This document shows positions 10,228-46,320 of a stretch of 49,468 nt of DNA, piece by piece; position 1 is the first letter of the stretch, and the number at the start of each line of letters is the position of its first letter. Position numbers and translations under genes: made by a program. Below the pieces are notes generated by a model that saw only the letters and a list, made by a program, of their open reading frames with translations, was not told the origin of the DNA and did no database searches. Location of the stretch: the NCBI GenBank assembly GCA_003661605.2, contig QMWL02000001.1, positions 1 to 49,468 of the forward strand, in the 5' to 3' direction. This DNA comes from an archaeon (GTDB lineage: Archaea > Thermoproteota > QMWL01).

Positions 10228-10575
10228 ATGAACGAGACTTTTCATACGGTTGCTCAGGAGTTAAAGCGGGTTCTCTTTGCCATTCAAGCAAGTGGTCTTT
10301 CCAACGAGTTTAATGAGGAGCTGCGTGTTGTTGCAAACACAATAACTCTAATCGAAGAAGCTGCCTCTTCAGACACGATACCTTCGTTTCGTCTTCTCCT
10401 GGCGCTTCATAAGACCTCAATCGCACTTCTATCCTTGATAGCACAAATCCCTGAAACTGCACCGCGACTATCACAAGTAGAGGCGTTGGTGTCACGTTTA
10501 CACAACGAGCTCTGTAAAACTGGCTTTTACCACATGACTGGTCGAGACTCTATGGCCAGAGCAGCAGATCTCTAA
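10228..10575 (+). CDS. Hypothetical small alpha-helical protein (115 aa), possibly a distant paralog of the upstream ORF
   Basis: Starts 8 nt after the preceding ORF. Shares an ungapped DT-x3-F-x2-L-x3-H pattern at residues 49-61 with the 98-aa neighbour. Confidence 0.45.
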   Translation: MNETFHTVAQELKRVLFAIQASGLSNEFNEELRVVANTITLIEEAASSDTIPSFRLLLALHKTSIALLSLIAQIPETAPRLSQVEALVSRLHNELCKTGFYHMTGRDSMARAADL

Positions 10576-11188
10576 CACTTAGTTCCTTTGCGTTAACGCA
10601 CCATAGATGGTAGACTCCTCGCTTAGGTCGTAAGCGTTTCAACACTCCCTTAATGCCTGAAACCAGGTCCTCTGTTGCATACGTATCCATCAAGACCAGC
10701 ACCATGTGCGGAACCAGCTGACCACTTTTCACGGTCTCTTCGAGGACCTCTTCAGGCTTGTTCGGTCGCGCCCGCGGAGCTGGGCGTCGAAGCCACATCT
10801 CCATACGCTCCACCCACTTAGCTGCCTCTCGATACGCCCTCACACCTTTCTTTCGCTCAAGGGGTAGCGCTACGACAAAAAACGCATCATTACCTTTAAC
10901 TCCTACCGTTGTGATCTTTAGATCACGCACCTTACGAAAGAACTTATCAGTACCCAACTCCTCAAGATGCTTCCTCACTGCTATCTGCAGACTAAACTCC
11001 TCTAAGGACATACCCGACTTCCACGCTATTCCGTATCGAGCAGACCATAACGCAGCCTTTAGCATGGTGACGCTCTCCTCCAAAGCAGCCCTGAAGGGAG
11101 CATCTTCAGGCGTCTCCTTTAACAACTCCTGAACCTCCTCCCACAGACGCGTCAATCTTTCTACAGGGCTACTCATACAGTGTCTCAT
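10550..11188 (-). CDS. Hypothetical protein
   Basis: The listed ORF runs to 11245, but its first about 19 codons overlap the tRNA gene at 11212-11290. The internal ATGs at 11188 or 11176 (MSSPVERL...) are more plausible starts. I recognise no family. Confidence 0.5.
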   Translation of the reverse strand: MRHCMSSPVERLTRLWEEVQELLKETPEDAPFRAALEESVTMLKAALWSARYGIAWKSGMSLEEFSLQIAVRKHLEELGTDKFFRKVRDLKITTVGVKGNDAFFVVALPLERKKGVRAYREAAKWVERMEMWLRRPAPRARPNKPEEVLEETVKSGQLVPHMVLVLMDTYATEDLVSGIKGVLKRLRPKRGVYHLWCVNAKELSVRDLLLWP

Positions 11189-11211
11189 ACAGCGCAAACA
11201 TAACTGTAAGA

Positions 11212-11290
11212 TGGTGCGCCGGGCGGGATTCGAACCCGCGATCACCGGCGCGGAGGGCCGGGGTCCTAGTCCAGGCTAGACGACCGGCGC
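11212..11290 (-). tRNA. tRNA-Gly (anticodon UCC by position) with genomically encoded CCA
   Basis: The reverse complement GCGCCGGTCGTCTAGCCTGGACTAGGACCCCGGCCCTCCGCGCCGGTGATCGCGGGTTCGAATCCCGCCCGGCGCACCA folds as a cloverleaf. Stems: 7-bp acceptor, GTCT/GGAC D stem, CCGGC/GCCGG anticodon stem, GCGGG/CCCGC T stem with a TTCGAAT loop. The anticodon loop is CCUCCGC. Confidence 0.8.
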
Positions 11291-20717: not shown

Positions 20718-20793
20718 TGGGCCGGCGGGGATTTGAACCCCGGATCACGAGCGCCCCAGGCTCGCATCCTAGACCAAGCTAGACGACCGGCCC
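20718..20793 (-). tRNA. tRNA-Pro (GGG); CCA not encoded
   Basis: The reverse complement GGGCCGGTCGTCTAGCTTGGTCTAGGATGCGAGCCTGGGGCGCTCGTGATCCGGGGTTCAAATCCCCGCCGGCCCA folds as a cloverleaf. The anticodon stem is CGAGC/GCTCG, the loop is CUGGGGC, and the T loop is TTCAAAT. Confidence 0.88.
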
Positions 20794-31307: not shown

Positions 31308-32372
31308 GTGCAAAAGAATAGAGTAGAAGCTCGCCTATACGAGAAGCTATCTGGTAATCAAGTGCGTTGCAATCTCTGCCCCCGCCGCTGCATCATACCT
31401 GACGGTGGAAGGGGGTTCTGTGAAGTTAGAGAGAACCAAGGTGGAACGCTCTACACACTTGTATATGGTCAGGTATCTTCTATGGCTGTAGATCCGATCG
31501 AAAAAAAGCCTCTCTTTCACTTCTGGCCAGGTAGCGCTACTTTCTCCATCGCTACACTCTCCTGTAACTTACGCTGCATCTTCTGTCAAAACTGGCAACT
31601 AGCTCATAGTGGTCCTGATAGCGCCTTTACCAGTTATGCTGAGCCTAGGGAGATCGTTTCACTTGCACAACGCTATCGCTGCGAATCCATATCCTACACC
31701 TACAACGAGCCTGTTATCTGGTTTGAGTACATTCTCGATGTTGCAAAGCTCGCTAAGCAGAGCGGATTACTCAACGTGCTAGTCACCAACGCCTACATAA
31801 CCGAGGACGGTGTATCCGAACTCGCCCCCTACGTGGATGCAGCAGCTGCAGACCTCAAAGCATTCACCGATCGTTTTTACCAGAAACTATGCCATGGCGC
31901 ACACTTACAGCCTGTTCTCGATGCGCTTGTTGCCATGAAAGAACGCGACATACACGTAGAGATTATCAACCTGATAATACCCGGTTGGAACGATAGCCCT
32001 GATGAAACGCGCAAACTCTGTAGATGGGTCCGCGATAACCTAGGACCAGATACCCCCTTGCACTTCTCAAGATTCTTTCCTCACTACCAGATGGTCAACA
32101 CACCCCCAACCCCCCTCAAAACTCTCATGCGTGCTCGAACCATCGCTCAAGAAGAAGGTCTTCACTACGTATTTGTCGGTAATGCCCCCGGTCTCGCTGA
32201 GGACACGCTATGCCCCAACTGCGGTCAGCCTGTAATTCGCCGATACGGCTTTGATGTTGTTGAAGTAAACCTTACTGAAGACAATGCGTGTAAGTTCTGC
32301 CAGCATCCTATACCCATACGTGGTCGGGCTCGGTCCTCTAGCTTTAGCCACCGCTTCTATCCGTTTATCTAA
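31308..32372 (+). CDS. AmmeMemoRadiSam-type radical SAM enzyme (PflA-like)
   Basis: VRCNLCPRRCIIPDGGRGFCEVREN, DPIEKKPLFHFWPGS, and CNLRCIFCQNW (CxxxCxxC). C-terminal CPNCG...CKFC. Confidence 0.8.
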   Translation: MQKNRVEARLYEKLSGNQVRCNLCPRRCIIPDGGRGFCEVRENQGGTLYTLVYGQVSSMAVDPIEKKPLFHFWPGSATFSIATLSCNLRCIFCQNWQLAHSGPDSAFTSYAEPREIVSLAQRYRCESISYTYNEPVIWFEYILDVAKLAKQSGLLNVLVTNAYITEDGVSELAPYVDAAAADLKAFTDRFYQKLCHGAHLQPVLDALVAMKERDIHVEIINLIIPGWNDSPDETRKLCRWVRDNLGPDTPLHFSRFFPHYQMVNTPPTPLKTLMRARTIAQEEGLHYVFVGNAPGLAEDTLCPNCGQPVIRRYGFDVVEVNLTEDNACKFCQHPIPIRGRARSSSFSHRFYPFI

Positions 32373-32419
32373 CGCGTCATCATAGCGTTTATTTGCTTCG
32401 ATTCTGCTAACTAACGAGC

Positions 32420-33505
32420 TTGTGGTTCCTCCGACCTGACGCCATTGCTGTCCTGAAAGATAAGCGTGCGCGCGCTAGCCTTTCCCGCTATTTTGCTATC
32501 ATGGAAAACCGCCTACCAGCTCGCTTTCGCGTCATGAAGGCCGTCTCCGTTGACTTTTCTCCAGACGATCCTCTGAAGGACCTATGGCATAAGCACGACC
32601 AAGCGCTCTCTGAATTTGTTAAGCTAGATCAGGAGGTTTGCGAGCGAGGAAAACCGGAAGCACCCGATCCAGCATCTCCCTCACTTCTCGACTTAAAGCA
32701 TGCAATCGCTTTACGCCTGCTTGAAAGCTGTCGTTTCTGCCCTCGCTACTGTGGTGTCAACCGTCGTGCTGGACAACGTGGCTACTGCCAGCTAGGTGAT
32801 CAAATCCTCGTCTCCACGGCCTTCGACCACTGGGGAGAAGAACCCGAGTTAGTTCCCAGCTTTACCGTCTTCACGATAGGGTGCAACCTCCGCTGCCTTC
32901 ATTGTCAGAACTGGACCATAAGCCAGCGCTTTGAATCAGGTACCCCCTACACCCCCAGGGAAATCGCCTTCATGGTCGACAAAGCACGTCGTGAAGGCTG
33001 TCGTAACCTCAACATGGTTGGTGGCGACCCTACCCCATGGCTACACGCTTGGCTGGAGGTCTCCAAGTACCTAAAGACTAACATCCCTCTGGTTTGGAAC
33101 TCTAACTCATACTATAGCGAAGAGACAGCGAAGCTCCTCGCTGGGTGGATAGACGTTTACCTCCTGGACTTCAAGTACGGCAACGACACTTGCGCAAAAC
33201 GCATTTCCGACGCTCCCGGCTACTGGGAAGTCTGCACTCGTAACCATCTGATAGCTAAAAAGTGGGGCGAGCTCATTATTCGAATCCTCGTCCTTCCTCA
33301 ACACCTCGACTGCTGCCTTGTTCCCATCCTAGAATGGATTGCAAATAACCTCGGTCGTGATGTTCGCGTAAACATCATGTTCCAGTACCGTCCTGAATGG
33401 CGGGCTCACGAAATACCCGAACTTCGGCGGCGATTAACACGCCAAGAAATGCAGCGTGCAGTCGAAGAAGCCAAGCGAGTAGGGCTTACGAACTACATTA
33501 CCTAA
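32420..33505 (+). CDS. Radical SAM protein, PflX-like (COG1313-type)
   Basis: CRFCPRYCGVNRRAGQRGYCQ, HWGEEPELV, and GCNLRCLHCQNW (CxxxCxxC). TTG start. Confidence 0.7.
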   Translation: MWFLRPDAIAVLKDKRARASLSRYFAIMENRLPARFRVMKAVSVDFSPDDPLKDLWHKHDQALSEFVKLDQEVCERGKPEAPDPASPSLLDLKHAIALRLLESCRFCPRYCGVNRRAGQRGYCQLGDQILVSTAFDHWGEEPELVPSFTVFTIGCNLRCLHCQNWTISQRFESGTPYTPREIAFMVDKARREGCRNLNMVGGDPTPWLHAWLEVSKYLKTNIPLVWNSNSYYSEETAKLLAGWIDVYLLDFKYGNDTCAKRISDAPGYWEVCTRNHLIAKKWGELIIRILVLPQHLDCCLVPILEWIANNLGRDVRVNIMFQYRPEWRAHEIPELRRRLTRQEMQRAVEEAKRVGLTNYIT

Positions 33506-33539
33506 GCTAATGTTAAGTACGCCTTACGGCTGCTTTTAG

Positions 33540-33794
33540 GTGGCTGAGCGAACCAAGTCATCGTCCTCCACACGCCGCTACTGCCCTGAGTGCGGCGGCG
33601 AACTTCTCTACGAACCCGAGACGCGCAACCTCGTATGCACTAGCTGCGGGCTTGTATACGATCGCTATCTTCTGATGCAGAAGCGCCGCGAGATCCGTGA
33701 AGCGATTGCTAAGTCCTTACGCGAACCTTCCAGCCCTGAACTAGAGCGTATCAAGAAGCGCCGCGAGTACCTGCAGTGGCTTATGGAGCAATAG
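33540..33794 (+). CDS. Small zinc-ribbon protein with a basic helical tail
   Basis: CPECGGELLYEPETRNLVCTSCG is a 4-Cys ribbon. 84 aa. Ends 4 nt before the GPN GTPase gene. Confidence 0.5.
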   Translation: MAERTKSSSSTRRYCPECGGELLYEPETRNLVCTSCGLVYDRYLLMQKRREIREAIAKSLREPSSPELERIKKRREYLQWLMEQ

Positions 33795-33798
33795 GGTC

Positions 33799-34566
33799 AT
33801 GGATACTGTATTCATCATCGGCATGGCAGGTTCAGGGAAGTCTCAGCTTACTGCTGCGCTCCGCACCTATCTGGATGAAGAGGGGATCGACGTACTGACC
33901 CTAAACCTCGATCCCGCCGTTCGCAACCTTCCGTACGTTCCAGATCTCGACGTACGTGACTACGTTTCCTATGATAAGCTTATGGAAGAGCAAGAACTAG
34001 GTCCTAACGCCGCACTTGTCGCGGTAATCGATCAGATAGCTTTGGAGATAGAGCGTATCGAACAACCACTCCTAGAGACTGAACCGCAGATAGTTCTCAT
34101 CGATACCCCCGGTCAGCTCGAGCTGTTTGCGTTCCGTCAGGCAGGCACATTCATAATGCAACACTTGCACGCTGAGCACAAAGCTGTGCTCTACATCTTC
34201 GACGCAATATTCTCCCGTTTGCCTCACAACTTCACCGCGAACCTCCTTCTTTCAACTGCTGCGCAGCTCGTCCACGGACTACCTCAGATCAACGTCCTTA
34301 ACAAGGTTGACATGCTTGAAGAAGAACAGGTCGAAGAGATGCTTGAGTGGGCACAGAACCCGCAGTCTCTATCAGAAGCCTTGCTCAACTTGCCAGAGCC
34401 TCGGCGCGTATACTTCACAGGAATTCATGAAGCAATCGACGAAGCAGGTCTCTACGTAGGGCTCGTTCCCGTATCCGCCCTCACTCTCTACAATATCTCT
34501 GGGCTCTACGCCGAGATCTCTCGTCTGTTTTACGGGGGAGAGATGGGGCCTAGCTACAGCCCCTAA
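33799..34566 (+). CDS. GPN-loop GTPase
   Basis: GMAGSGKS (G1), NLDPA, the GPN motif in ELGPNAALV, DTPGQLELF (G3), and LNKVD (G4). Confidence 0.88.
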   Translation: MDTVFIIGMAGSGKSQLTAALRTYLDEEGIDVLTLNLDPAVRNLPYVPDLDVRDYVSYDKLMEEQELGPNAALVAVIDQIALEIERIEQPLLETEPQIVLIDTPGQLELFAFRQAGTFIMQHLHAEHKAVLYIFDAIFSRLPHNFTANLLLSTAAQLVHGLPQINVLNKVDMLEEEQVEEMLEWAQNPQSLSEALLNLPEPRRVYFTGIHEAIDEAGLYVGLVPVSALTLYNISGLYAEISRLFYGGEMGPSYSP

Positions 34567-34567
34567 T

Positions 34568-35119
34568 ATGCACCGCGCGCTACGTATACCTCTCATCGCC
34601 ACCTTCTCAGCGCTCGCTATCGCTCTCAACTACGCCTTTGCTGCAATCCCCAACGTCCAGTTGTTCGACTTCATCGTATACCTCACTGCCTTCTCCTTCG
34701 GATTTGACATAGGGGCTGGAGTTGCTGTTGTAACATGGCTGGTATACGGGTACCTGAATCCATGGGGGTTCTTTCTCCCGATCCTTGCTGCAACTACTGT
34801 ATCAGAACCAATCTACGCCATCGCCGGAACTGCTGCGGCACGAAGCCCTCGCCTATGGAAGCAGACCCGCATCGCGGCTTTAGTTCATGCGCTCAACGCT
34901 TTGTGGACGACTCTCGTCTACGATTTGCTAACTGCCTCCGCTTATGCACTGGTTTTCCACGTTCCACTACTCGCTGCACTTCTAGCTCAAATTCCCTTCA
35001 CGATCCTACATCTAGCTGCAAACATACCTCTCTTTTCACTCACTCCTCTCATAGCAAGCTACCTCGACCGATCCCTCCCCGCTGGCTTAGTCCGTAAACC
35101 AGCTAACAGCTCTATATAG
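34568..35119 (+). CDS. Polytopic membrane protein, possibly an ECF-transporter S-component-like protein
   Basis: About 5-6 hydrophobic segments. The N-terminal IPLIATFSALAIALNYAF...IPNVQLFDFIVYLTAFSFG resembles S-component architecture. The assignment is tentative. Confidence 0.4.
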   Translation: MHRALRIPLIATFSALAIALNYAFAAIPNVQLFDFIVYLTAFSFGFDIGAGVAVVTWLVYGYLNPWGFFLPILAATTVSEPIYAIAGTAAARSPRLWKQTRIAALVHALNALWTTLVYDLLTASAYALVFHVPLLAALLAQIPFTILHLAANIPLFSLTPLIASYLDRSLPAGLVRKPANSSI

Positions 35120-35138
35120 CAACCTGAAGCATCCCGCA

Positions 35139-35639
35139 ATGAGCAACTCAACAATTGCGAGGAGGGTGGGCATCGCAGTAGGTGGTATTCTTATTGCAGC
35201 GTTTGCTCTGTTTGTAGGCTACTACTACTGGCTGTTTGCACAAAGCTACGGTAGCCATCTAGGTCGTATAGAGCGCCTCTGGAACCTCGCAGTATTCATC
35301 GACTACGGAAACGGTACAGTAGAAATACACCGATTTGCAACCGTCCCCCGCGATGAGGCAACCCCCCTTTCTCTCCTAGAGGAATGCGCTGATGTCTTGG
35401 TAATCTACTCCTTATCGCTTAAAGCAACACCCTCTAACCAGACCATGCACCCCACCGTCTTTGTATGGTCGATAAACGGTGTTAACTCAACAGGAGGGTA
35501 CTTCTGGCTCACGTACCTCCGCTCACCGAACGGTGTCTGGACCCCTCTTAGCCCCTCCGAACTGCTCGAACCACTACCAGGCAATAACTACGCAGTATCG
35601 TGGAACTACACGCAGATCTCTCCGTCTCCCACGCTATAG
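35139..35639 (+). CDS. Membrane-anchored extracytoplasmic protein, DUF4430-like (transcobalamin-like beta domain)
   Basis: N-terminal TM anchor (VGIAVGGILIAAFALFVGYYYWLF). VFVWSINGVNSTGGYFWLTYL and LPGNNYAVSWNY resemble the DUF4430 pattern (f..sInGv....yW.y.....l.dGD.i.w.y). Confidence 0.45.
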   Translation: MSNSTIARRVGIAVGGILIAAFALFVGYYYWLFAQSYGSHLGRIERLWNLAVFIDYGNGTVEIHRFATVPRDEATPLSLLEECADVLVIYSLSLKATPSNQTMHPTVFVWSINGVNSTGGYFWLTYLRSPNGVWTPLSPSELLEPLPGNNYAVSWNYTQISPSPTL

Positions 35640-35683
35640 AGCAGCCGTAGCCAAAGCCTAATACTAACCACAGTCGCGCCCTC

Positions 35684-36379
35684 GTGAGCGAGCTAACCAA
35701 GCAGATCATCCAGAAAGCGCTATCGGAGGGCAGAAAAGCCCTACTTGAGCCTGAAGCCAAACAGATTTGCCAAGAGTATGGAATTCCTGTTCCACCATTC
35801 GCGGTCGCTAAAACCGAAGAGGAGGCCGTTAAAGCGGCGGAGCAGTTTGGCTACCCAGTGGTTCTAAAGATCGTATCCCCTCAGGTTCTCCACAAAACCG
35901 ATGTAGGTGGAGTGCTCGTTAAGCTCAAGAACGCAGAAGAAGTTCGGAAAGGCTATCATCACATAATCGAAAACGTCCGTCGCCACGTTCCCGATGCTGA
36001 CATTCACGGTATACTCGTTACGAAGTTTGCAGAAGAAGGCGTTGAAGTCATCGTTGGCGCAATCAAAGACCCACAGTTCGGACCCGCTGTGATGTTCGGC
36101 TTAGGAGGCATCTTCGTCGAGCTATACAACGACGTGTCCTTCCGCCTCGCTCCCGTTAGTGAGCGAGATGCTCGAGAGATGATACAAGAAATCAAAGCAT
36201 ACCCGATTCTCACCGGATATCGTGGTCGTCAACCGTGTGACATAGAGACGATCGTAAAGATCATCAGAGCCGTATCCCAGCTCGTTACTGACCATCCTGA
36301 AATCAGCTCCCTAGACCTTAACCCGATTGAAGTATATCCTAAGGGTGCTTACGTCGTCGACGCGCGAATAGTCCTCTAG
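35684..36379 (+). CDS. acdB: Acetyl-CoA synthetase (ADP-forming), beta subunit (ATP-grasp)
   Basis: EPEAKQICQEYGIPVPPF, GYPVVLKIVSPQVLHKTDVGGV, and LDLNPIEV. GTG start. Confidence 0.88.
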   Translation: MSELTKQIIQKALSEGRKALLEPEAKQICQEYGIPVPPFAVAKTEEEAVKAAEQFGYPVVLKIVSPQVLHKTDVGGVLVKLKNAEEVRKGYHHIIENVRRHVPDADIHGILVTKFAEEGVEVIVGAIKDPQFGPAVMFGLGGIFVELYNDVSFRLAPVSERDAREMIQEIKAYPILTGYRGRQPCDIETIVKIIRAVSQLVTDHPEISSLDLNPIEVYPKGAYVVDARIVL

Positions 36380-36381
36380 CC

Positions 36382-37197
36382 CTGTCCTCCGACTACGACA
36401 CCGAAGAGCAGAAGCTCCTAAACCAGATTGCGGAGGCAGAGCGTCAGCTTTCTGAACTAGAGGAGCGAGAGCGTCAGCTTGTAGCGCTTCTTCGTGAACG
36501 CCGTGAGCAGCTTCGCAAGCTTGTAGAGGCACGTCGGTCGCTTGTAGATCAGCTACGGCAGCTTCGCGCTGAGCGAGACCGTTTAGCTAACCAGGTCCGA
36601 ACTTGCTACGAGCGCCTCCGCGAACTAGTCGCTGCTGCACGGCGGGTCCGTGCTTTAGCAAAGCTACCGCGTGATGTCCTTGAGAAGCGTATTACCGAAC
36701 TCGAGGAACGGTACTTCTACAGCATTCTGCCCCTACAGGAAGAACGAGCACTCGTACATGAAATCGAGAAATACTGGCAGCAGCTTCGTGCACATATTCA
36801 TCACGAAACGCTAACTCATCAACTGGATACGCTACGTAACCGCATTAGAGAACTTCGCAGTCGCATCTACGAAATCAAACAGACGATCCGCCAACAGCGG
36901 CAACAGATCGAGAACCTGAGAAACAAGATATCTGCAATTGGTCAGGAAGTTGACGATCTTCGTAAGCAACTCTCCGCTATCCGTCGTCAGCGCCGTCAGC
37001 TCAATAACCAGATAGACAAGCTTCGTGATCGGCTATCCGAGCTACGTCTTGAGCGCGTTGTAGAGGAGCAAGTTCGCCGTACGCAAGCTCTCAGAGAGGA
37101 AAAGCGTCGTATTGCTAAGCGTGTCAAGGAGAGGCTTCAACGCGGTGAGCCTGTATCGTTAGAGGAACTTCGTATCTACTACGAGGTCTTCGGTTAG
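36382..37197 (+). CDS. Coiled-coil protein (COG1340-like) with no canonical start codon; absent from the ORF track
   Basis: Frame +1 is open from 36343 to TAG 37195-37197. A hand read of all 285 codons found no ATG, GTG or TTG. The translation is a Leu/Arg/Glu/Gln heptad-rich coiled coil ending ...GEPVSLEELRIYYEVFG. The start shown is the CTG 3 nt after the acdB stop and is only a guess. Confidence 0.6.
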   Translation: MSSDYDTEEQKLLNQIAEAERQLSELEERERQLVALLRERREQLRKLVEARRSLVDQLRQLRAERDRLANQVRTCYERLRELVAAARRVRALAKLPRDVLEKRITELEERYFYSILPLQEERALVHEIEKYWQQLRAHIHHETLTHQLDTLRNRIRELRSRIYEIKQTIRQQRQQIENLRNKISAIGQEVDDLRKQLSAIRRQRRQLNNQIDKLRDRLSELRLERVVEEQVRRTQALREEKRRIAKRVKERLQRGEPVSLEELRIYYEVFG

Positions 37198-37239
37198 ACT
37201 ACACACTAAACTTAATTTAGGCGCTGTCGTAAGAGGTGG

Positions 37240-38358
37240 TTGCGACGCCCGCTCCACGGCCGGCTTCTGGTCCTCTGCGTCGATGAAGACGACGACTTAG
37301 GGACGAAAACTGGTCTCACCACTCCGGTCGTGGGGCGGGAAGCGAACCTGATGGCTGCTGTTCAGCTAGCTACTCGAGACCCCGAGGAAGCCGATGCTAA
37401 CGCCATATTCGAGGCAATTCGCACCTACGATCGGCTGGTGAAAGAGCTAGGTTCACGCTATGTCGAAATAGCTACGATAACCGGATCCCCTCGAGGCGGC
37501 ATTGAAGCTGCACACCGTATTCTCAACAGTCTCGATGAGGTACTTGAGCGGTTTCCAGCTGATTACATCGTACTAGTCACCGATGGCTTTGCCAGTCCTG
37601 AAGTTACGTCCCTGATATCCTCAAGGCGACCCGTCGCATCCATCCGCCGTGTAGTTATCAAGCACCATGCTTCCGTTGAGGAGACCTATCACGTCATTGC
37701 ACGCTACCTCAAGATGATCGTAGAAGAACCACGTTTCTCCCGCTACCTCCTCGGTCTTCCTGGCGTCCTCGGCTTGCTCGCTCTAATCCTGTATTTCCTA
37801 AACCTAACTCACTACTTCGCCTACACGCTCGCTTTCGTAGTCTGCACTCTCCTAGTTGTCAAAGGCTTCCACATCGATCGTGCTGCCCGTCAGTTTGCGC
37901 GCGCAGCAGCGCGAACCTTCTACTCTCCGATCTTCCAAGCTAAGCTTCTCGTCGTATCTGGGTCTCTGATACTCTTAGGTATAGGCATCTATCAAGCCAC
38001 ACAGGTAGCGATAGTGGTATACGACCCTCTACTCGGTTTCCGCGCCCTTCAGATCGCTATAGCATACTGGCTTCAAGGCGCATCCCTCTTCCTGATGCTC
38101 GCCTTCATAATCTTCTTCAGCGGACGCGCCGTCTACAAAACCCTAGGACGACACCCTCGCGCCCTCGAAAACTTCCTAGGTATCATCGCATCGGTAGTCT
38201 TCTTCTACCTATTCCTCTACCCAATATCCGAGTACTTGCTTAATCCTGATTCACCGATCCTTCCTCTCCTCCTGCGCCTTCTCATCGGAATCGCCGTTAC
38301 TGTTGCTGCAACCATACTGTTTGAACGATATATTCACCGCCGTAGCGCCGAGCAGTGA
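37240..38358 (+). CDS. DUF373-family integral membrane protein
   Basis: Soluble N-domain LVLCVDEDDDLGTKTG...TPVVGREANL...DPEEADANAIFEAIR, followed by about 6 TM helices. TTG start. Confidence 0.7.
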   Translation: MRRPLHGRLLVLCVDEDDDLGTKTGLTTPVVGREANLMAAVQLATRDPEEADANAIFEAIRTYDRLVKELGSRYVEIATITGSPRGGIEAAHRILNSLDEVLERFPADYIVLVTDGFASPEVTSLISSRRPVASIRRVVIKHHASVEETYHVIARYLKMIVEEPRFSRYLLGLPGVLGLLALILYFLNLTHYFAYTLAFVVCTLLVVKGFHIDRAARQFARAAARTFYSPIFQAKLLVVSGSLILLGIGIYQATQVAIVVYDPLLGFRALQIAIAYWLQGASLFLMLAFIIFFSGRAVYKTLGRHPRALENFLGIIASVVFFYLFLYPISEYLLNPDSPILPLLLRLLIGIAVTVAATILFERYIHRRSAEQ

Positions 38359-39128
38359 AACGAGTCGCAATCATAGGCGGCTCTGGACTAGAGCGCTTAC
38401 TTGCTGGACAACAGCATTCTCCTATATCAACTCCGTTTGGCGACGTATCGTACATAAAGCGCATAGAAGCACCCTTCCCTCTCTTCTTCCTCCCCCGTCA
38501 TGGTCCTCAGCACGCTGCACCGCCTCACGCGGTCAACTACCGTGCAAACATATGGGCAATAGCTGCGCTTGACGTCTCTCGCATTATTGCCGTTAGCGCC
38601 GTAGGATCCATGGACCCAGAGATACCTCCGGGATCCTTCGTAATACCCGATAATGCTATCGACTTCACCCGAAGACGTACTGCTACATTCTTTGAAAACG
38701 AAGCTGCTCACGTCGACATGACTCAACCTTTTTGCCCAGAGGTACGCTCAGCGTTGATCAACGCTTGCCGTGAAAACCAAGTCCGCGTCTACGACAACGG
38801 TGTTTACGTTTGTACAGAAGGACCGCGATTCGAGACCGCTGCAGAGATCCAGTTTTACCGAAGGATCGGAGGCACGGTCGTTGGTATGACTCTCTTCCCC
38901 GAGCTTCCGCTTGCACGTGAGAAGGGCATCTGCTACGCCTCTCTCTGTGTTGTAACCAACTTTGCTGCAGGAATCAGTAGCCGTATCACGGTTGAGGAGG
39001 TCTTTACGAGGATGCGGAAGCTTACAGCTACCATTCGCAGTATACTCCTCAGAGCCGCCACTCTCATCCCTGAGCAACGATCCTGCACCTGCGGAGCCGC
39101 ATTGCAACGTGTAGCGGATTTCATCTAG
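38355..39128 (+). CDS. mtnP: S-methyl-5'-thioadenosine phosphorylase (MTAP / PNP family 2)
   Basis: VAIIGGSGL, LPRHGPQHAAPPHAVNYRANIWA, AVSAVGS, TEGPRFETAAE, and VVGMTLFPE. Confidence 0.88.
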   Translation: MKRVAIIGGSGLERLLAGQQHSPISTPFGDVSYIKRIEAPFPLFFLPRHGPQHAAPPHAVNYRANIWAIAALDVSRIIAVSAVGSMDPEIPPGSFVIPDNAIDFTRRRTATFFENEAAHVDMTQPFCPEVRSALINACRENQVRVYDNGVYVCTEGPRFETAAEIQFYRRIGGTVVGMTLFPELPLAREKGICYASLCVVTNFAAGISSRITVEEVFTRMRKLTATIRSILLRAATLIPEQRSCTCGAALQRVADFI

Positions 39129-39130
39129 CC

Positions 39131-39934
39131 ATGCGAATCCCCCGTCCTCTCATACGTCTCTCTCGCGCGCTAGCCCGCTATACCGGTGTCGAAAAGCTCT
39201 ACGAGCGAATGCTCTTCGACGAAATACGCGCACACCCCGTTCCTAAACACGTCGCCATAATCTTGGATGGAAACCGCCGTTGGGCACGTGAACGCGGGCT
39301 TCCTCCATGGGCTGGGCACGAGGAGGGCGCTAAGAAAGTAGAGAAAGCTCTGCGGTGGATCCGACAGATCGGTATAAAGTACGTAACCCTATACACTCTT
39401 TCGACAGAAAACCTTCGTAGAAGCCGTGAAGAGCTGCAGAAGCTGTTTGAAATCTTCGAAAGACAGGCCCTCCGTCTGCTTAACGACAAGGAGATCCTTC
39501 GTGAGGGTGTACGGTTCCAATTCATCGGTCGTACGCACCTGTTACCGGAGCGTCTCCAGCAGCTGATGTGCGAGATCGAGAAACGCACCCAGAGTGGGAA
39601 GAACCTCACCGTAACTATTGCCATCGCGTACGGAGGTCGTGCTGAAATCGTTGATGCCGTTCGCCGTATTGCTGAGCGTGTTAAGCATGGTGAGCTTTCA
39701 CCAGAGCAAATAGATGAAGTCGTTATTGCCAAGAACCTTTACACTCGCGATATACCCGACCCCGACCTCATCATACGCACTTCAGGCGAGGAGCGCATTA
39801 GTAACTTCCTCCTTTGGCAGTGTGCATATAGTGAATTTGTATTCCTCGATGTTTACTGGCCTGAGTTCCGAAAGATAGACTTGCTTCGCGCTATACGCAC
39901 CTACCAGCTACGTCACCGCCGTTTCGGTCGCTAG
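39131..39934 (+). CDS. uppS: Cis-prenyltransferase (undecaprenyl diphosphate synthase family)
   Basis: HVAIILDGNRRWA, YTLSTENLRR, and IRTSGEERISNFLLWQCAYSEF. Confidence 0.92.
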   Translation: MRIPRPLIRLSRALARYTGVEKLYERMLFDEIRAHPVPKHVAIILDGNRRWARERGLPPWAGHEEGAKKVEKALRWIRQIGIKYVTLYTLSTENLRRSREELQKLFEIFERQALRLLNDKEILREGVRFQFIGRTHLLPERLQQLMCEIEKRTQSGKNLTVTIAIAYGGRAEIVDAVRRIAERVKHGELSPEQIDEVVIAKNLYTRDIPDPDLIIRTSGEERISNFLLWQCAYSEFVFLDVYWPEFRKIDLLRAIRTYQLRHRRFGR

Positions 39935-39935
39935 A

Positions 39936-40976
39936 TCAAACAGGGCTACGCGGGAAGCGAGACAGCACCTTTGCACCTTCTTCCGTTACCACCACATCAT
40001 CTTCAATTCGCACACCGAACATGCCTTCCAAGTACACTCCTGGCTCTACCGTAACGACATCCCCCGCTACTAATAGCTCATTCGAGTAAGGAGATAGTCG
40101 CGGCGGTTCATGTACCTCTAAGCCTATTCCATGACCAGTAGAGTGGATAAACGCCTCCCCTAGCTTTCGCTCCTCCAAGAACTTACGCGCACGTGCGTCT
40201 ACCTCAGCGCACCTCGCTCCTGCTCTTATCCCAGCGATAGCAAGCTTTTGCGCCTCTAGGACAGCGCTCCAGACCTCCTCGAAACTCTCCGGTGCTCTTC
40301 CAACAACGAAGGTGCGTGTTAGATCTGCACAGTACCCGTTAACGCGCGCACCTATATCGACAACAACAGCATCTCCTCTCTGTAGCTCCCTATCGCTTGT
40401 TCGATGGTGTGGAAAAGCGCTGTTAGGTCCTGAGGCAACAATACACTCGAAGGAGAACCACTCTGCTCCCGCTTCTCGCATTGCGCGCTCTGCTAGAGAC
40501 GCCAGTTCCCTCTCTCGAAGTCCCGGTCTCAGCCCTTCCTCTACGGCCTTCAATCCCTCCTCTGTAACTCTCACCGCTGCTTCGATTCTCCGAATCTCCT
40601 CCTCGTCCTTTCGCCGACGTACCTCGTAAACTTCCTTTGCAACGCTTACGGGCTCTATGCCCTTTCTCTGTACAACTTCCAATAAGCTGATGTCAAGAGC
40701 ATCAAACCCGATACGCCCCTGTACTTTCTCTCCAACTTGCTGCCACAGCTCCTCCCGCCGTCGCCACACGCTGAGTTTAACCCCCTCTACCTGCTGCCGC
40801 GCTCGCGCTTCTTCTAACCTCGGCACCAGAAGCCAAGCTTCGTGAGGCAGCACAAGTAGCACTCCTGCATTAAAGCCTGTCAGGTAGAACACATTCTCGC
40901 GACGCGTGAGTAGGATACCTACTGCCCCCTTTTCTCGGCTTTTTTCGAGAATGCGTGTTGCCCGATCCCACCGCAC
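39936..40976 (-). CDS. M24-family Xaa-Pro aminopeptidase / prolidase
   Basis: Pita-bread metal ligands: VVVDIGARVNGYCADLTRT, HSTGHGIGLEVHE, VTVEPGVY, and RIEDDV. Confidence 0.85.
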   Translation of the reverse strand: MRWDRATRILEKSREKGAVGILLTRRENVFYLTGFNAGVLLVLPHEAWLLVPRLEEARARQQVEGVKLSVWRRREELWQQVGEKVQGRIGFDALDISLLEVVQRKGIEPVSVAKEVYEVRRRKDEEEIRRIEAAVRVTEEGLKAVEEGLRPGLRERELASLAERAMREAGAEWFSFECIVASGPNSAFPHHRTSDRELQRGDAVVVDIGARVNGYCADLTRTFVVGRAPESFEEVWSAVLEAQKLAIAGIRAGARCAEVDARARKFLEERKLGEAFIHSTGHGIGLEVHEPPRLSPYSNELLVAGDVVTVEPGVYLEGMFGVRIEDDVVVTEEGAKVLSRFPRSPV

Positions 40977-40995
40977 GCCCTGCGTTTTCGCTCGC

Positions 40996-41586
40996 TTAAT
41001 CCGCTTTACCCTCTTGAAGCTCCTTACCCCTACTCAGTCCAAGCTGAAGTGCACGTATGCTAACGGCGTAAGGAAGAGTCGCTCGAACTGCTTTCTCTAA
41101 CGCATGCGTACTTACCGGAAGCACTCCAAGACTCTTCGCAACCCCCACCAGCAGCACGTTCGCTTGTAGCGGCGAACCCACCTCCCTCGCAGCCCACGCT
41201 GTAGCGGGTACGAAGAACACCACTCCTCGACTACGGATCTGGTCTCTAACGTGTTGGATAGCACACCCCTCTGGAAGGTGACCACTAAAAGGCTCCGATT
41301 CAGAAACAACAACCCCCGTAGGAGCAAGCATCGAAAGCCAGCGGAGCGTCTCGATAGGATCTAGACCTAAAATCAGATCCGTAGCTCCTTCTGGAATCAG
41401 CGGACTAGCTACTTCTTCACCCCACCGGATGTGAACGACCACGGATCCACCGCGTTTTGCTACACCACGTGTTTCGCAGACTTTCACATGATGACCATCA
41501 ACAAGCGCAGCGCGCGCGATGATTATACCTGTAGTTACTACTCCTTGACCGCCAACGCCGCACACAAGAACGTTGAAGACCTTCAA
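40996..41586 (-). CDS. 2-oxoacid:ferredoxin oxidoreductase gamma-domain protein (IorB/POR-gamma-like)
   Basis: MKVFNVLVCGVGGQGVVTTGIIIARAA is the N-terminal signature of the POR gamma / IorB family. TTG start in a TTGA overlap with the upstream stop. No alpha or beta subunit gene is nearby. Confidence 0.7.
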   Translation of the reverse strand: MKVFNVLVCGVGGQGVVTTGIIIARAALVDGHHVKVCETRGVAKRGGSVVVHIRWGEEVASPLIPEGATDLILGLDPIETLRWLSMLAPTGVVVSESEPFSGHLPEGCAIQHVRDQIRSRGVVFFVPATAWAAREVGSPLQANVLLVGVAKSLGVLPVSTHALEKAVRATLPYAVSIRALQLGLSRGKELQEGKAD

Positions 41587-42614
41587 CTGAAGATGCTCTT
41601 GATGTAGCTTAGCGCTTGCCCCGGCTCAAGGATACCTGCTCGAAGCTCTCGAAGTACGCGCTGCACAGACGCCCAGCGGTAGGCTGGGTACCGTTTGTGA
41701 AGGTATCGTAAGAACGGGCATCCATACGTAAACCCGCGTCCTCGAAACTCGTAAACAGTCCTTGCGATTAGGACGGTCTCGGACTTGGTGAGCGCTAACG
41801 CAGCACAAAGGTTCAGAACCCAGACCTCTCCTATTCGCTGGAGTGCGTGATAGCCTGTGGGAAGTAGGTCTCCGAAACTTACGAGAGGGATTCCCCGCTC
41901 TTGAGCAAAGGCTAGAACCCGTTCAGTAATCAAGCGCCGACACTTACCACACGGATGAAGTCTCCCCTGCACCGCTCGCCGAGCAACCTCCTCAAACCCC
42001 GGTACATCCCGTAAAACTACGTGTTCCACTCCTAACCGCTCTGCAATCTGCCGTGCACGATCCTCAACCCTACGTGGAACGATATACGGCGCTGGTGCAA
42101 CAGTTACGGCTATCGGGTTTAACCCCGCCTCCCTCGCAAGGATGAGAGCAGCGGTACTATCCGCACCGCCTGAGAGCCCTACTACGATGCTCGGTACGCC
42201 TTCCTCCTCGACCTCCAGATTAGGTCGTAACGGATAATGCTTCAATTCTCGTTCAAGAAGCGGCACTATGTGCTTTTCAAGCACATCTTTGAGACGCTGG
42301 GAAACTCGCGCTCGCTTTACACACTCCAGAGTCATGCGAATCCTCCACCGCTTTACCACAACATCCGTAAGAGCCCGTACCCCAATATTCGGTATGTCAA
42401 ACCATTTCTTCAGCTCAGCTACCGCCCACGCACCAGGACCTAAGAGCGCGGATTTATCCGGTCTATCGGGAACGAATATGAAAAGCGTGCGCGAGTCCTC
42501 ATCCACTAAAACCCGCGAAATGACAGGTCTTCCATACATAATACCAACCTTCCTGTAAATGCGCTCTCGTATACGTTCCAGAGCCTGCTCAACATCCCCT
42601 TTCCTGATGCGCAT
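41583..42614 (-). CDS. PP-loop superfamily ATP pyrophosphatase with an N-terminal KH-like domain
   Basis: VVGLSGGADSTAALILA (SGGxDS PP-loop). HPCGKCRRL Cys pair. N-terminal region with LLGPGAWAVAEL (GxxG-like). The exact family is unresolved (COG2117-like?). Confidence 0.65.
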   Translation of the reverse strand: MRIRKGDVEQALERIRERIYRKVGIMYGRPVISRVLVDEDSRTLFIFVPDRPDKSALLGPGAWAVAELKKWFDIPNIGVRALTDVVVKRWRIRMTLECVKRARVSQRLKDVLEKHIVPLLERELKHYPLRPNLEVEEEGVPSIVVGLSGGADSTAALILAREAGLNPIAVTVAPAPYIVPRRVEDRARQIAERLGVEHVVLRDVPGFEEVARRAVQGRLHPCGKCRRLITERVLAFAQERGIPLVSFGDLLPTGYHALQRIGEVWVLNLCAALALTKSETVLIARTVYEFRGRGFTYGCPFLRYLHKRYPAYRWASVQRVLRELRAGILEPGQALSYIKSIFS

Positions 42615-42635
42615 GGAGCCAACAGAACCGATCTT

Positions 42636-42643
42636 TGTTAAAA
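42636..42643 (-). promoter_or_regulatory. Putative TATA box for the PP-loop ATPase operon
   Basis: The minus strand reads ATTTTAAC about 22-29 nt upstream of the start at 42614, consistent with a leaderless or short-leader archaeal promoter. Confidence 0.3.
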
Positions 42644-42716
42644 TTGGTAGCGCGCTTTACCACACCGCTGCTGAAAACGGGTCTAATAACTTAGTAAAAA
42701 TGTATTGACGGTGTTT

Positions 42717-42725
42717 CCTATATCC
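42717..42725 (+). promoter_or_regulatory. Putative TATA box for smc-scpA-scpB
   Basis: CCTATATCC lies 20-28 nt upstream of the GTG start at 42745. Confidence 0.3.
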
Positions 42726-42744
42726 AAAATAGACTGGAGAACGC

Positions 42745-45700
42745 GTGTCTGGACGCATTCTCAGCGTCCGTGTGCGCAACTTCAAAGTATTTGGACCTCG
42801 AACCACTTGTTTCCAGCCTGCCTCTGGACTCACACTCCTTATTGGACCCAACGGTCAGGGTAAAAGCTCCCTCCTACAAGCTACTATTCTACCTCTAGGA
42901 ATCAACATACGCCGTGTTTTACGTCTGCTTGGCGTTGGTAGCGTCATCGATCTATTCCATAGGAAGGAAGACCGAGTTGCGCGAAAGATCTCCGTGGAAA
43001 TCGCTTTTGACAACGCTGACCGGTTCTTCCCCATAGATTCCGATCAAGTCGTTATCCGCCGAGTTCTCACACGGTCAGAAGGCGGTGTTGAAGCTAGCAA
43101 GTTCTACCTCAACGGGCGCCGCGTTCAAGCTTATGTCGTACAAAACCTCCTTCACCGCGCGGGAATAGACCCCACAGGGTTCAACATCGTCCCCCAAGGT
43201 GCTATCGTCGAAATCGCAAACAAAGACTCCGAAGAACTTGCTGCGTACATTCGCAGTCTTGCTGGCATTGAAGAATTCGAGGAACGGCGACGACGTGCTG
43301 AGAAGCGCCTCGCAGAGGCCGAACAGCACCTACGCGAGCTACGAGGTCGAAGAGCGGGCGAAGAACGCTTTGTCCTTACTCTATCCCGCGATCTAGTAGT
43401 TGCACAACGAAGACAGCTAACCGAACGGCTCCTCAGCATGATCGAAACCGCGCTCCTTCTCCATGAGAGGAACGCACTCAGTGCTCAGATCGAAGACCGC
43501 GAACGCCACGCTCGAGAGTTGGAGGAGAACCTGAAAGTTCTTCGAGAGCAGATCCAAGCTATACGCCAGGAGATAAACGGTCTCCAGCGCCAGCTACAGC
43601 AAACGCTACCTAGCATTGAAACCGACCTCGCACAAATCGACCTTGATCTACAACGCCTACGCGGAGAGCGTTCAAACCTAGAAGACCAAATACGTAGCGT
43701 AAACGCAGACCTAGAGCACTTAAACCAGCGAATCGATGCGGTTCGAAGAGAGAAGCAGCAAGTTAATAATGAACGTGAGGCGCGTCTTCAAGAGATCAAC
43801 CAACTGCTAGAGAAGCAAGACCAGTTAGTTAAACAGGTAGAATGCCTCGAAAAGAGTATTGCACAGCTTCGCGATCGTGAAAATTCGCTCATAAACTTGC
43901 TTTCCTCTGGTACCGGGGAGAGAACTCAGCTCGAACAACAGCTACAGGACGTGGAGAAACAGCTTCGTGAAGCGCGTAACCGCCTTTCAAGACTTCAAAC
44001 ACGCCTCGAAGCCCGAGAAGCCGTAGTCCGCGACCTTGAGTCTCGTATATCTGACATCGACCTCGAACTATCTACTCTTCGCGAACAGCTACAGGATCTA
44101 CGTGACGCTATCTCGCATCAGCAACGAGCACTAAATCTCTCTGAGAAACGGCTGACACAGCTTCGTGAACGATACGCTCGAGCCCACACTTTGCTAAACG
44201 ACGCTCGTGAAGCTCTCTCTACGGCGCGAATCCTCGTCATGTCCATCGATGCTCAACGCTCCATAGTAGAAAACCTCGCCACCGCTCAGCAAGCGCGACA
44301 GCGGTTACTCGAACTCGCACGTGCAGGCATCATACCTGGGGTTCTCGGTGTTTTACGCGATCTCATCAAAGTACTGCCTAGACACAAGCCTCTGATAGAA
44401 GCCGTTCTACGAGACTGGCTCGACGCCTATGTTGTCGAAGACCTCAACGCTGCTTCCCAGCTACTTGCTTACGCCAAGCGTATGCAAGCTGGGCGTATTA
44501 TCGCAATTCCTGTATCGCTAACAAAGCGCCTTCGCCCCCCACCTCCTCCAAAGCACCCTGCAATCATCGCTACCGCCGATAAGCTAGTACGTGCTTCAGC
44601 TCAGATACAACCCGTAGTTCGCTTTCTTTTAGGAGGCGTGGTTTTCGTTTCCTCTCCTAAAGCAGCTGCAGAGCTTGCTCAGAAGGGATACACTGCGATA
44701 ACGAGAGACGGTGTAGTGTATACCGCTAGCGCTGTTGCAACAGGGTCTCCCAGCAAACTACAGTCTCTACCTAAACTACCCATCCTCACCCTAAAGCGTG
44801 TGAAGAAACTGGTTAAACGGCTTGAACGGCTTACGGTAGACCGGAAGCGCCTCATAGCCGATCTGAAGCGCGCTATCGAAGAAGAAGAGAAGTCTATTGA
44901 AACCCAACGTCAGTCTCTGGCGAAGTTACAAGCGGACTTTGACCGCCTACAAACCACGCTACAGCGATCCGAAGCGCGCCGCGACCGCTTAGCCAAAAAA
45001 CTGGCTTCTGAACGTGCGGTTCTCGTAAAGCTAAGACGAGAATGTAATCAGACAGCAGCTAGAGTTGCAGCACTGGAAAGCCGGTATGCACAGCTGTCTC
45101 AACGTCTTGCGAACCTAAACCCTGAGCGAATTGAAAGGGAGATTCGAGGCGTTCGTGCACGCATCGAGCAACTCAAGGGTCAATTACGCAGTACGCGCCT
45201 CCAGATTGAAGATATAAGGAAAAAGATCGAGGATCTTCGCCGCATTGACTTACGGCTTCGGACGTGTGCAGAGTCCCTCTTCGCCACAGAGCAACAGCTA
45301 GGGCAGCGAAGAAACGAGCTTCAGAATAAGCGCCGCCGCCTTCTTCGCAGCCTTCAGGTCTTGGTGGATCAGGAAAAGCGTTTGGAGGAGAGACGTACTG
45401 CTCTCCTCAAGCTTCGTGAGGATGCTATAAGTGGTCGATGGCAGTTAATTGAACTCCTAAACAAGCGACAAGAGGAGTTTCAAACACTAGACAGCAAGTA
45501 CCGCTCTCTCTTGGCCGAGCAAACGCGGCTACTTACTCAGGTGAACTATGACCGCGACCAGCTCCATCGTCTCGATCAAAAGCTCCATGAATCTGCTTTC
45601 CTAGAGTCCGCTACAGAACTACTAGCCACACACGACCCTGATTTCCTCAAGAAGCTCAAAGCACTACTTCACCGCGAGTTACGAGAAATAGGTCCCGTAA

Positions 45701-46320
45701 ACGAGCGAGCTTTCGAAGAGTATAATCGTAATCTCCCCGGGTTCAAAAAACTATCTGAGCGACTTCGCGAACTAGAAGAGGAATGTAACGCCATTCGGCA
45801 GCTGATCGAGCGCATCGAACAAGAAAAACACCAGACTGTTCGAAGCATCGTTGACAGAATAAGCCACCACTTCGCTCGCTACCTGCGCGAGTTCTTCCCA
45901 AACAGTTCTGCGCGGCTCTTCTTCGAAGATCCCCAGCACCCTGCCGACTCACCTATCTCCATCCGCGTGCGTATAGGCGATAAACCCGAGATGAGCCTCA
46001 TGGCCTGCAGCGGCGGCGAGAAGGTTATCACAGCGATCTGCTTGATTCTCGCGTTTCAAGAACTATTCCCCGCCCCCTTCTACATCTTCGACGAGATCGA
46101 CGCTGGTCTCGATGCTCGTAATGCTGAGATCCTAGCTCGTTTGATCCGTCAGCTCGCTGATAGGTCCCAGGTCATAATTGTGTCTCACCGAGGTCGCGAA
46201 CTTGCACGACTTGCTGACAAGATCGTAGGCGTCTTCACCGCAGATGGAAGAGCGCACCTCGTATCCGTACGCCCCGAGCAGCTTGTCCAACAAGCAGTCT
46301 CTCCCGTCACCTCGCCTTGA
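42745..46320 (+). CDS. smc: SMC chromosome segregation ATPase
   Basis: Walker A GPNGQGKSS, long heptad coiled coils, a central hinge (about aa 520-690), signature CSGGEKVITAICLILAF, and Walker B FYIFDEIDAGLD. 1191 aa. Confidence 0.93.
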   Translation: MSGRILSVRVRNFKVFGPRTTCFQPASGLTLLIGPNGQGKSSLLQATILPLGINIRRVLRLLGVGSVIDLFHRKEDRVARKISVEIAFDNADRFFPIDSDQVVIRRVLTRSEGGVEASKFYLNGRRVQAYVVQNLLHRAGIDPTGFNIVPQGAIVEIANKDSEELAAYIRSLAGIEEFEERRRRAEKRLAEAEQHLRELRGRRAGEERFVLTLSRDLVVAQRRQLTERLLSMIETALLLHERNALSAQIEDRERHARELEENLKVLREQIQAIRQEINGLQRQLQQTLPSIETDLAQIDLDLQRLRGERSNLEDQIRSVNADLEHLNQRIDAVRREKQQVNNEREARLQEINQLLEKQDQLVKQVECLEKSIAQLRDRENSLINLLSSGTGERTQLEQQLQDVEKQLREARNRLSRLQTRLEAREAVVRDLESRISDIDLELSTLREQLQDLRDAISHQQRALNLSEKRLTQLRERYARAHTLLNDAREALSTARILVMSIDAQRSIVENLATAQQARQRLLELARAGIIPGVLGVLRDLIKVLPRHKPLIEAVLRDWLDAYVVEDLNAASQLLAYAKRMQAGRIIAIPVSLTKRLRPPPPPKHPAIIATADKLVRASAQIQPVVRFLLGGVVFVSSPKAAAELAQKGYTAITRDGVVYTASAVATGSPSKLQSLPKLPILTLKRVKKLVKRLERLTVDRKRLIADLKRAIEEEEKSIETQRQSLAKLQADFDRLQTTLQRSEARRDRLAKKLASERAVLVKLRRECNQTAARVAALESRYAQLSQRLANLNPERIEREIRGVRARIEQLKGQLRSTRLQIEDIRKKIEDLRRIDLRLRTCAESLFATEQQLGQRRNELQNKRRRLLRSLQVLVDQEKRLEERRTALLKLREDAISGRWQLIELLNKRQEEFQTLDSKYRSLLAEQTRLLTQVNYDRDQLHRLDQKLHESAFLESATELLATHDPDFLKKLKALLHRELREIGPVNERAFEEYNRNLPGFKKLSERLRELEEECNAIRQLIERIEQEKHQTVRSIVDRISHHFARYLREFFPNSSARLFFEDPQHPADSPISIRVRIGDKPEMSLMACSGGEKVITAICLILAFQELFPAPFYIFDEIDAGLDARNAEILARLIRQLADRSQVIIVSHRGRELARLADKIVGVFTADGRAHLVSVRPEQLVQQAVSPVTSP

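Follow-up and report, generated by a model that had tools for sequence, protein, structure and literature searches.

We analysed a stretch of 49,468 nucleotides (nt) from an archaeon of the Thermoproteota (GTDB lineage QMWL01), namely positions 1 to 49,468 of the forward strand of contig QMWL02000001.1 (GenBank assembly GCA_003661605.2), and refer to this whole stretch as the window. Between a gene for an acdB-like subunit and a gene for a DUF373 membrane protein the window carries a gene for a coiled-coil protein (Table 1), whose reading frame is devoid of ATG, GTG and TTG (hereafter start-type codons) and which appears to begin with CTG. Frame +1 is free of stop codons from 36343, directly behind the TAA at 36340-36342 that forms its upstream boundary, to the TAG at 37195-37197, and a scripted reading of its 285 sense codons counted zero start-type codons, in agreement with an initial annotation that had been made from the sequence alone. 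The same annotation had remarked that the only open reading frame (ORF) listed at this place is an antisense one of 73 amino acids (aa). This ORF exists, with only four short out-of-frame ORFs of 43-57 aa listed near it, and is considered spurious, the opposite strand being fully accounted for by acdB and the coiled-coil gene.

Table 1. Coordinates of the features at the coiled-coil gene locus (positions in the window)
Feature	Position	Strand	Remarks
acdB-like ATP-grasp subunit of an ADP-forming acyl-CoA synthetase	35684..36379	+	231 aa; GTG start; TAG at 36377-36379
Incidental extension of the coiled-coil frame in the 3' end of acdB	36343..36381	+	13 codons, GCLRRRRANSPLA
Stop-start junction TAG-cc-CTG	36377..36384	+	acdB stop, 2-nt spacer, putative initiation codon CTG at 36382-36384
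Coiled-coil protein gene	36382..37197	+	271 codons plus TAG; no frameshift, no internal stop
N-terminal family motif TEEQKLLNQI	36400..36429	+	residues 7-16; ungapped alignment to relatives
Central conserved motif LEERYFYSILPLQEERALVHEI	36700..36765	+	residues L107-I128; turn between two long helices; from family alignments
C-terminal tail RGEPVSLEELRIYY	37141..37182	+	residues 254-267; family hallmark
A/T-rich TATA-like box cttaattta	37211..37219	+	21-29 nt before the TTG start of DUF373; spotted by eye
DUF373 membrane-protein gene	37240..38358	+	Pfam DUF373, 5.8e-81
Antisense ORF	36311..36532	-	73 aa; only ORF that start-codon-based lists put here

The open frame is not a product of chance, as only about 0.005 open runs of 285 codons are expected in the six frames of 49 kb ((61/64)^285 x ~4600 stops), and it is the sole stop-to-stop frame of at least 120 codons without a start-type codon on both strands of the whole window. 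The probability that 271 codons include no start-type codon amounts to ~0.0014 at plus-strand codon usage and to ~0.0017 when conditioned on the composition of the coiled-coil protein (40 Leu, 15 Val, no Met). Start-type codons make up 2.4% of the codons of plus-strand genes compared to 5.6% in minus-strand genes, and this low usage arises because the plus strand is rich in C (14,598 C vs 11,170 G, with a GC skew of ~-0.13 in every 2-kb block, whatever the gene orientation). Within plus-strand genes TTG represents 4.9% of the Leu codons, GTG 12% of the Val codons and Met 0.9% of all codons, and some of these genes hold as few as 2-3 start-type codons per ~200. The absence of internal start-type codons is therefore largely a by-product of the C-rich strand bias and not a property specific to this gene. 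Selection against internal start codons was considered as the main explanation and dropped, since G-ending codons are depleted strand-wide. The true anomaly is the single missing start codon; one base separates the coiled-coil gene from an ordinary gene. As to codon preference in general, plus-strand genes of the window favour C-ending and minus-strand genes G-ending codons (GTG 12% vs 26% of Val, GCG 17% vs 33% of Ala, Met 0.9% vs 1.4%). For an archaeon such a pronounced skew is out of the ordinary; it suggests that mutation is strongly biased through replication or repair.

Homology searches placed the encoded protein in a known family. An exhaustive phmmer search returned 52 matches at E<1e-3 (best 1.5e-13), many of them 280-320 aa long and aligned nearly end to end, for example query residues 7-267 to residues 3-285 of a 294-aa protein; they come from Thermoproteota (Desulfurococcales, Nezhaarchaeales, Bathyarchaeia) and are annotated as 'hypothetical proteins'. 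A tblastn-confirmed scan of GTDB genomes yielded 48 coiled-coil loci, for which a four-sequence alignment (A2) was used, a first alignment (A1) being too divergent. Scanning metagenomes with the coiled-coil protein gave relatives at 24-28% identity only. One family member (P0130) bears the JGI name 'uncharacterized coiled-coil DUF342 family protein', which we take to be a label of COG1340. The latter comprises highly conserved coiled-coil proteins of archaea whose function is unknown (PMC1322226), and the resemblance to it that the initial annotation had noted, including an LE/E..LV.EI motif and a short C-terminal tail, is supported by the end-to-end homologues that share both motif and tail.

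The relation to the Pfam family DUF7121 (PF23435) is less direct. In Bathyarchaeia, the gene immediately upstream of DUF373 encodes a PF23435 protein (68-69 bits against a cut-off of 29), and 10 of the 21 other members of a 22-row family alignment that includes the window protein (A3) match DUF7121 at E <=0.01. The Pfam search proposed earlier had a divided outcome: DUF7121 is not among the 23 Pfam families matched by the window protein at E <=0.01 and the protein thus stays below the PF23435 gathering threshold, but BLASTP aligns it over its full length (2e-9) to a protein at locus L004 that itself scores 1.3e-18 on the DUF7121 model. BLASTP also matched it to P0121 (7e-22). Apart from this, Pfam and NCBIfam scans produced only generic coiled-coil matches below the cut-offs, scores on the SMC and Rad50 models remained far under theirs, and a sequence search of the PDB retrieved only generic coiled coils.

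Three motifs, the central one in part, connect the protein with its family. The N-terminal EE-x-LL motif is common to both. Of the central family motif LEW-x-QT-x-L-x(3)-EE-x-x-(I/L)V-x-x-I, the residues L107, E108, L116, E121, E127 and I128 are kept, but E, F and Y stand in place of W, Q and T; the W is also missing in two other members (P0147 and P0153). The tail QRGEPVSLEELRIYYEVFG follows the family pattern KRGE(P/K)L(T/S)-x-EE(L/F) found after the second long helix, with KRGEPLTIEELKVLY, KRGEKLSWEEFQLL and similar sequences in relatives, and R254, G255, E256, P257, E262, L263 and Y267 are invariant in alignment A2. AlphaFold2 supplied with the family alignment models helices 2-92, 97-113, 118-254 and 260-270 (pLDDT 93.6) as a long antiparallel hairpin, so that the protein is predicted to be a helical hairpin of ~20 nm, with the central motif running from the end of helix 97-113 through the loop 114-117 into the start of helix 118-254. 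The best Foldseek match was the Smc arm of Pyrococcus yayanosii (5xg2, E 6.8e-4), and that of Bacillus subtilis (5nnv) reached a query-normalised TM-score of 0.70. This resemblance to SMC arms is generic to coiled coils: the SMC and Rad50 arms share the predicted long antiparallel two-helix hairpin and are structural analogues only, whereas the window protein lacks an ATPase head and hinge domains.

Sequence comparison hence presents the gene as a genuine, intact and full-length archaeal member of a COG1340-like, DUF7121-related coiled-coil family. It is a new and divergent member of a known but uncharacterised family and not a new kind of system. With COG1340-type and PF23435 proteins it shares a length of ~270-320 aa, similarity from end to end, the N-terminal motif, the central motif in the form LE...L...E..(I/L)V.EI, the C-terminal tail and the position upstream of DUF373 and UppS; it differs from them by missing the DUF7121 model, by the W/Q/T to E/F/Y replacements and by a start that reads CTG instead of TTG, GTG or ATG.

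The genomic position of the gene is conserved as well. In the window the order is GPN, two small genes, acdB, the coiled-coil gene, DUF373, purine nucleoside phosphorylase (PNP) and UppS, and nearly all of the 48 GTDB loci show either acdB or a GPN-loop GTPase gene followed by the coiled-coil gene, DUF373 and UppS. This core order was also seen in loci of Bathyarchaeia, Desulfurococcales, Acidilobaceae, Pyrodictiaceae and Methanomethylicota; in most related loci the coiled-coil gene has DUF373 downstream of it, and in at least 18 an acdB homologue directly precedes it. The location between acdB and DUF373 noted in the initial annotation is thereby found again in relatives. The gene order hints that the coiled-coil protein and DUF373 may work together, possibly in membrane or lipid-carrier biology, and the former would then probably act as a scaffold with the neighbouring membrane protein, a tentative role suggested by gene order. 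In the neighbourhood 33799-39934, the MTA/purine nucleoside phosphorylase gene is an optional element before the gene of the cis-prenyltransferase UppS, which is sometimes inverted.

The start of the gene has to lie upstream of ~36400, because the conserved N-terminal motif begins there. Between the upstream TAA and this motif, no codon except CTG 36382 differs from ATG by a single base, and this CTG is also the first in-frame codon wholly past the acdB stop, at a gap of 2 nt. The resulting junction reads TAG-cc-CTG; PNP and UppS in the window are joined alike, by TAG-cc-ATG at 39126-39133. CTG comprises 1.3% of plus-strand codons (109/8195), therefore its presence at exactly 36382 by chance is unlikely. 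When the stop-to-stop translations of 49 related loci were aligned by MAFFT and start-type codons marked, the column of CTG 36382 contained TTG in 12 loci and ATG in 1. Several relatives align without gaps to TEEQKLLNQI, as in TTG-SKPVEIEEKEILDKM (L015), TTG-TERSNTREHDLLTKV (L054), TTG-VEDRDSSESELLTKV (L046) and TTG-QAGQPVSEKDILEKI (L032), and the stretch from start codon to LL motif is likewise free of gaps in TTG-SKPVEIEEKEIL, TTG-TERSNTREHDLL and TTG-VEDRDSSESELL compared to CTG-SSDYDTEEQKLL in the window. In L032 this TTG is the sole start-type codon within the first 173 codons of the open frame, 84 codons before and 88 after it being without any. On the strength of these alignments we place the start at 36382. 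The syntenic alignment recommended in the initial annotation thus endorses CTG 36382, which had been named there as a near-cognate candidate. The options listed beside it were the right ones and can be narrowed: the evidence speaks against ATT 36427, a second assembly makes an error in the sequence unlikely, and the ancestral codon was most likely TTG. The simplest history, in which the direction of the mutation is read from the relatives, would be a TTG start that became CTG by a T-to-C transition.

Initiation at another non-canonical codon further downstream (ATT 36427 or AAG 36412) would shorten the protein by 10-15 residues and would agree with those family members that begin at about the ATT position (P0127, P0130, P0137 and the L006 group). 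The segment from CTG to ATT, however, carries the EE-x-LL motif in register with the relatives, and the ATT is located 47 nt from the acdB stop, outside the reinitiation range measured in H. volcanii (PMC10666635). A usable Shine-Dalgarno sequence is missing too, the GGAGG at 36432-36436 being downstream of the ATT. No RNA structure stands out when 36350-36470 is folded (z = -0.78), and nothing unusual was seen in this fold that might aid recognition of CUG either. We regard such a downstream start as improbable.

Upstream of the CTG, the 13 codons of the coiled-coil frame that overlap the end of acdB contain no start-type or near-cognate codon. They are considered non-coding in this frame, as the acdB frame there encodes the conserved acdB C-terminus. 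The overlap lies in the -1 frame relative to acdB and is open, and for this reason a fusion of both products through a programmed -1 frameshift within 36343-36376 was considered. It was rejected, and is given hardly any credence, because 36343-36379 lacks a slippery heptamer, the acdB product is complete up to the last position of the Pfam ATP-grasp_5 profile (3.2e-91, positions 1-221 of 221), and the upstream partner varies, many relatives having a GPN GTPase or another gene there and a coiled-coil gene with its own start.

As the assembly derives from a metagenome with a coverage of only ~5.6x, and a single base makes the whole difference, a sequencing, assembly or consensus error at 36382 that conceals a true TTG, GTG or ATG in an ordinary gene has to be weighed. 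Comparison of window positions 32240-43358 with contig NODE_136 of the ENA assembly ERZ584659 (62.7 kb, coverage 5.6) revealed 12 differences in 11,119 aligned positions, nine of them T/C on the window strand, two G/A and one A/T. Since none of these falls in 36343-37197 or in the junction, the two assemblies, which stem from two strains or from alternative consensus choices for a single population, agree on CTG and on the whole gene while differing at 12 other sites in 11 kb. A random hit on exactly base 36382 is moreover estimated at ~1e-4 or less a priori, no likelier than a true rare start variant, so we consider a base error a slim chance. T/C is the commonest kind of variant in this population, which fits a T-to-C change at the start codon.

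The junction with acdB offers a way in which a CTG start might be used. Each of the 18 acdB-to-coiled-coil junctions of relatives has a GTG or TTG between -23 and +14 nt relative to the acdB stop, and for 15 of them the interval narrows to -8 to +5 nt, with forms such as TAG-tg-TTG (L051, L053), TAG-gcc-TTG (L049), TAA-ccgg-TTG (L029, L031) and GTGA overlaps. The family almost never uses ATG: 46 of the 48 GTDB loci have GTG or TTG as their first start-type codon. Weak starts that abut an upstream stop in this way hint at a conserved coupled expression, at a low level or in stoichiometry with the upstream gene. Inspection of the sequence before 36382 disclosed neither a GGTG or GGAGG motif in the last 30 nt nor an A/T-rich box at ~-25, therefore the acdB mRNA is probably bicistronic, with the coiled-coil gene as its second cistron. 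The TATA-like box at 37211-37219 suggests that DUF373 has its own promoter, which would make the coiled-coil gene the last cistron of the acdB transcript.

We propose the following mechanism. The coiled-coil gene would form, as the distal cistron, a conserved pair with acdB that is coupled in translation; ribosomes terminating at the TAG of 36377-36379 would reinitiate 2 nt downstream without a Shine-Dalgarno sequence; the initiator Met-tRNA would pair with CUG through a mismatch in the first position; and the output of coiled-coil protein would be reduced. Termination-reinitiation, an established process in archaea, works only across overlaps or very short gaps (PMC6728339, PMC10666635). The present pair resembles the described cases (Huber et al. 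2019 and a 2023 follow-up) in that it is co-directional, with a gap of 2 nt, no Shine-Dalgarno sequence and a tight junction conserved in relatives, but those cases restart at ATG, GTG or TTG, mostly in ATGA or TGATG overlaps, whereas a restart at CUG is deduced here. That a CTG-started gene is still expressed at a reduced level by reinitiation after acdB is the best explanation we can offer, and one for which belief and doubt are about balanced; the bicistronic mRNA, the reinitiation and the use of CUG are all parts we infer. More tentatively, and with doubt prevailing, CUG itself may be a working initiation codon in this archaeon for ribosomes that reinitiate 2 nt past the acdB stop. As a remote variant, to which we attach next to no weight, C-to-U editing of the mRNA might restore UUG.

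Precedents for such a codon come from bacteria. CTG starts are proven for rpsL of Deinococcus-Thermus and for RepA (PMC2830850), and TTG is cited there as the dominant start codon in Aeropyrum pernix. All proven non-canonical starts considered, namely AUU/AUA in infC, CTG in Deinococcus-Thermus rpsL, ATC in Deinococcus dnaA and CTG in plasmid RepA, are bacterial, and they share with the gene of the window its conservation, the absence of a canonical start upstream of the conserved N-terminus, a single near-cognate codon at the homologous start and an annotation that misses or truncates the gene (PMC2830850). They differ in that their unusual codon is conserved, backed by N-terminal peptides or both, with a regulatory role in infC, whereas the CTG in the window is limited to one metagenomic lineage, has TTG in its place in relatives and is known here as a feature of the DNA.

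Several observations weigh against CUG as a functional start. Archaea are described as using AUG, GUG and UUG, with CUG not mentioned (PMC7531240), and a literature search for CUG starts in archaea disclosed no documented case. In E. coli, initiation at near-cognate codons reaches ~1% or less of that at AUG (Hecht 2017, as quoted in PMC10666635). The CTG is not conserved, all 49 related loci having a canonical start nearby, and the databases contained no close relative of the organism; a contig scan with the DUF373 protein found none, the nearest DUF373 homologues, from Bathyarchaeia, are <=45% identical, and the organism probably belongs to a deep-branching, poorly sampled lineage of Thermoproteota. 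The replacement of W, Q and T, the most conserved central residues of the family, could finally reflect either divergence of the lineage or relaxed constraint.

Much of this can be read in favour of a freshly silenced gene, an incipient pseudogene in which the change from TTG to CTG abolished initiation and the frame is intact as too little time has passed. The canonical start in 49 of 49 relatives marks the CTG as derived and singular, T/C transitions are the commonest variant in the population, near-cognate initiation is very inefficient where measured according to the work quoted in PMC10666635, and the near-invariant W and T of the central motif are lost. Yet the 271 codons are intact throughout, in spite of the many CAG, GAG, GAA, CGA and TAC among them that lie one step from a stop, and a search of the frame for pseudogene lesions (frameshift, internal stop, truncation, excess divergence) showed none, leaving the start codon as the only lesion. 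Nor is the divergence greater than in comparable deep branches: identities to other lineages are 0.307 for the coiled-coil protein and 0.352 for DUF373 in the window, compared to 0.305 and 0.342 in a Methanomethylicota locus, so the divergence is normal for a deep branch and gives no sign of decay. An excess divergence relative to Bathyarchaeia in a first relative-rate comparison disappeared when comparable class-level lineages served as the yardstick. Moreover, Thermoproteota conserve this family, and its synteny is fixed, and a null allele at the consensus of two assemblies would be unexpected. We therefore hold recent silencing to be unlikely, though a serious contender, and retain reduced expression from the CTG by reinitiation as the preferred explanation.

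If CUG does function here, the gene would be the first natural case of a CUG start to be described in Archaea, and it would suggest that termination-reinitiation relaxes the stringency of start-codon choice so that all four NUG codons can serve. In eukaryotes CUG is the best non-AUG start codon, and eukaryotic initiation factors resemble the archaeal ones. The gene, if expressed, would constitute a natural test case for CUG initiation in a eukaryote-like archaeal system and for the choosiness of ribosomes as to the restart codon.

The prediction that automatic annotation would miss the gene proved correct. No gene is called between acdB and DUF373 on ENA contig NODE_136, a word-index search of 5.8 billion proteins found neither the product itself nor any homologue, and the exhaustive phmmer search of 1.84 billion cluster representatives did not find the product either, its best match being 33% identical. 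That homologues might be lacking altogether, which would have spoken against a gene, is contradicted by the phmmer matches and GTDB loci described above. A single base in a start codon can accordingly hide a conserved 271-aa protein from gene callers based on ATG, GTG and TTG, and its recovery is expected with homology-aware callers or with callers that accept CTG at tight stop-start junctions.

Some further observations concern the window's genes in general. If the longest ORF is taken, about two thirds of them start with GTG or TTG. Many look leaderless, as they lack a Shine-Dalgarno sequence and carry an A/T-rich, TATA-like box ~20-30 nt upstream of the first start-type codon; examples are the starts at 12543, 31308, 32420 and 37240 on the plus strand and at 5995, 9858, 42614 and 48987 on the minus strand, many of them GTG or TTG. 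The minus strand encodes a tRNA-Gly(TCC) at 11212-11290 and a tRNA-Pro(GGG) at 20718-20793, and the 5' end of the minus-strand ORF 10550-11245 overlaps the tRNA-Gly gene, so its listed GTG start is probably wrong. The window's other large coiled-coil gene, at 42745-46320 on the plus strand and unrelated to the present finding, encodes a full-length SMC-type protein of 1191 aa with SMC_N and hinge domains.

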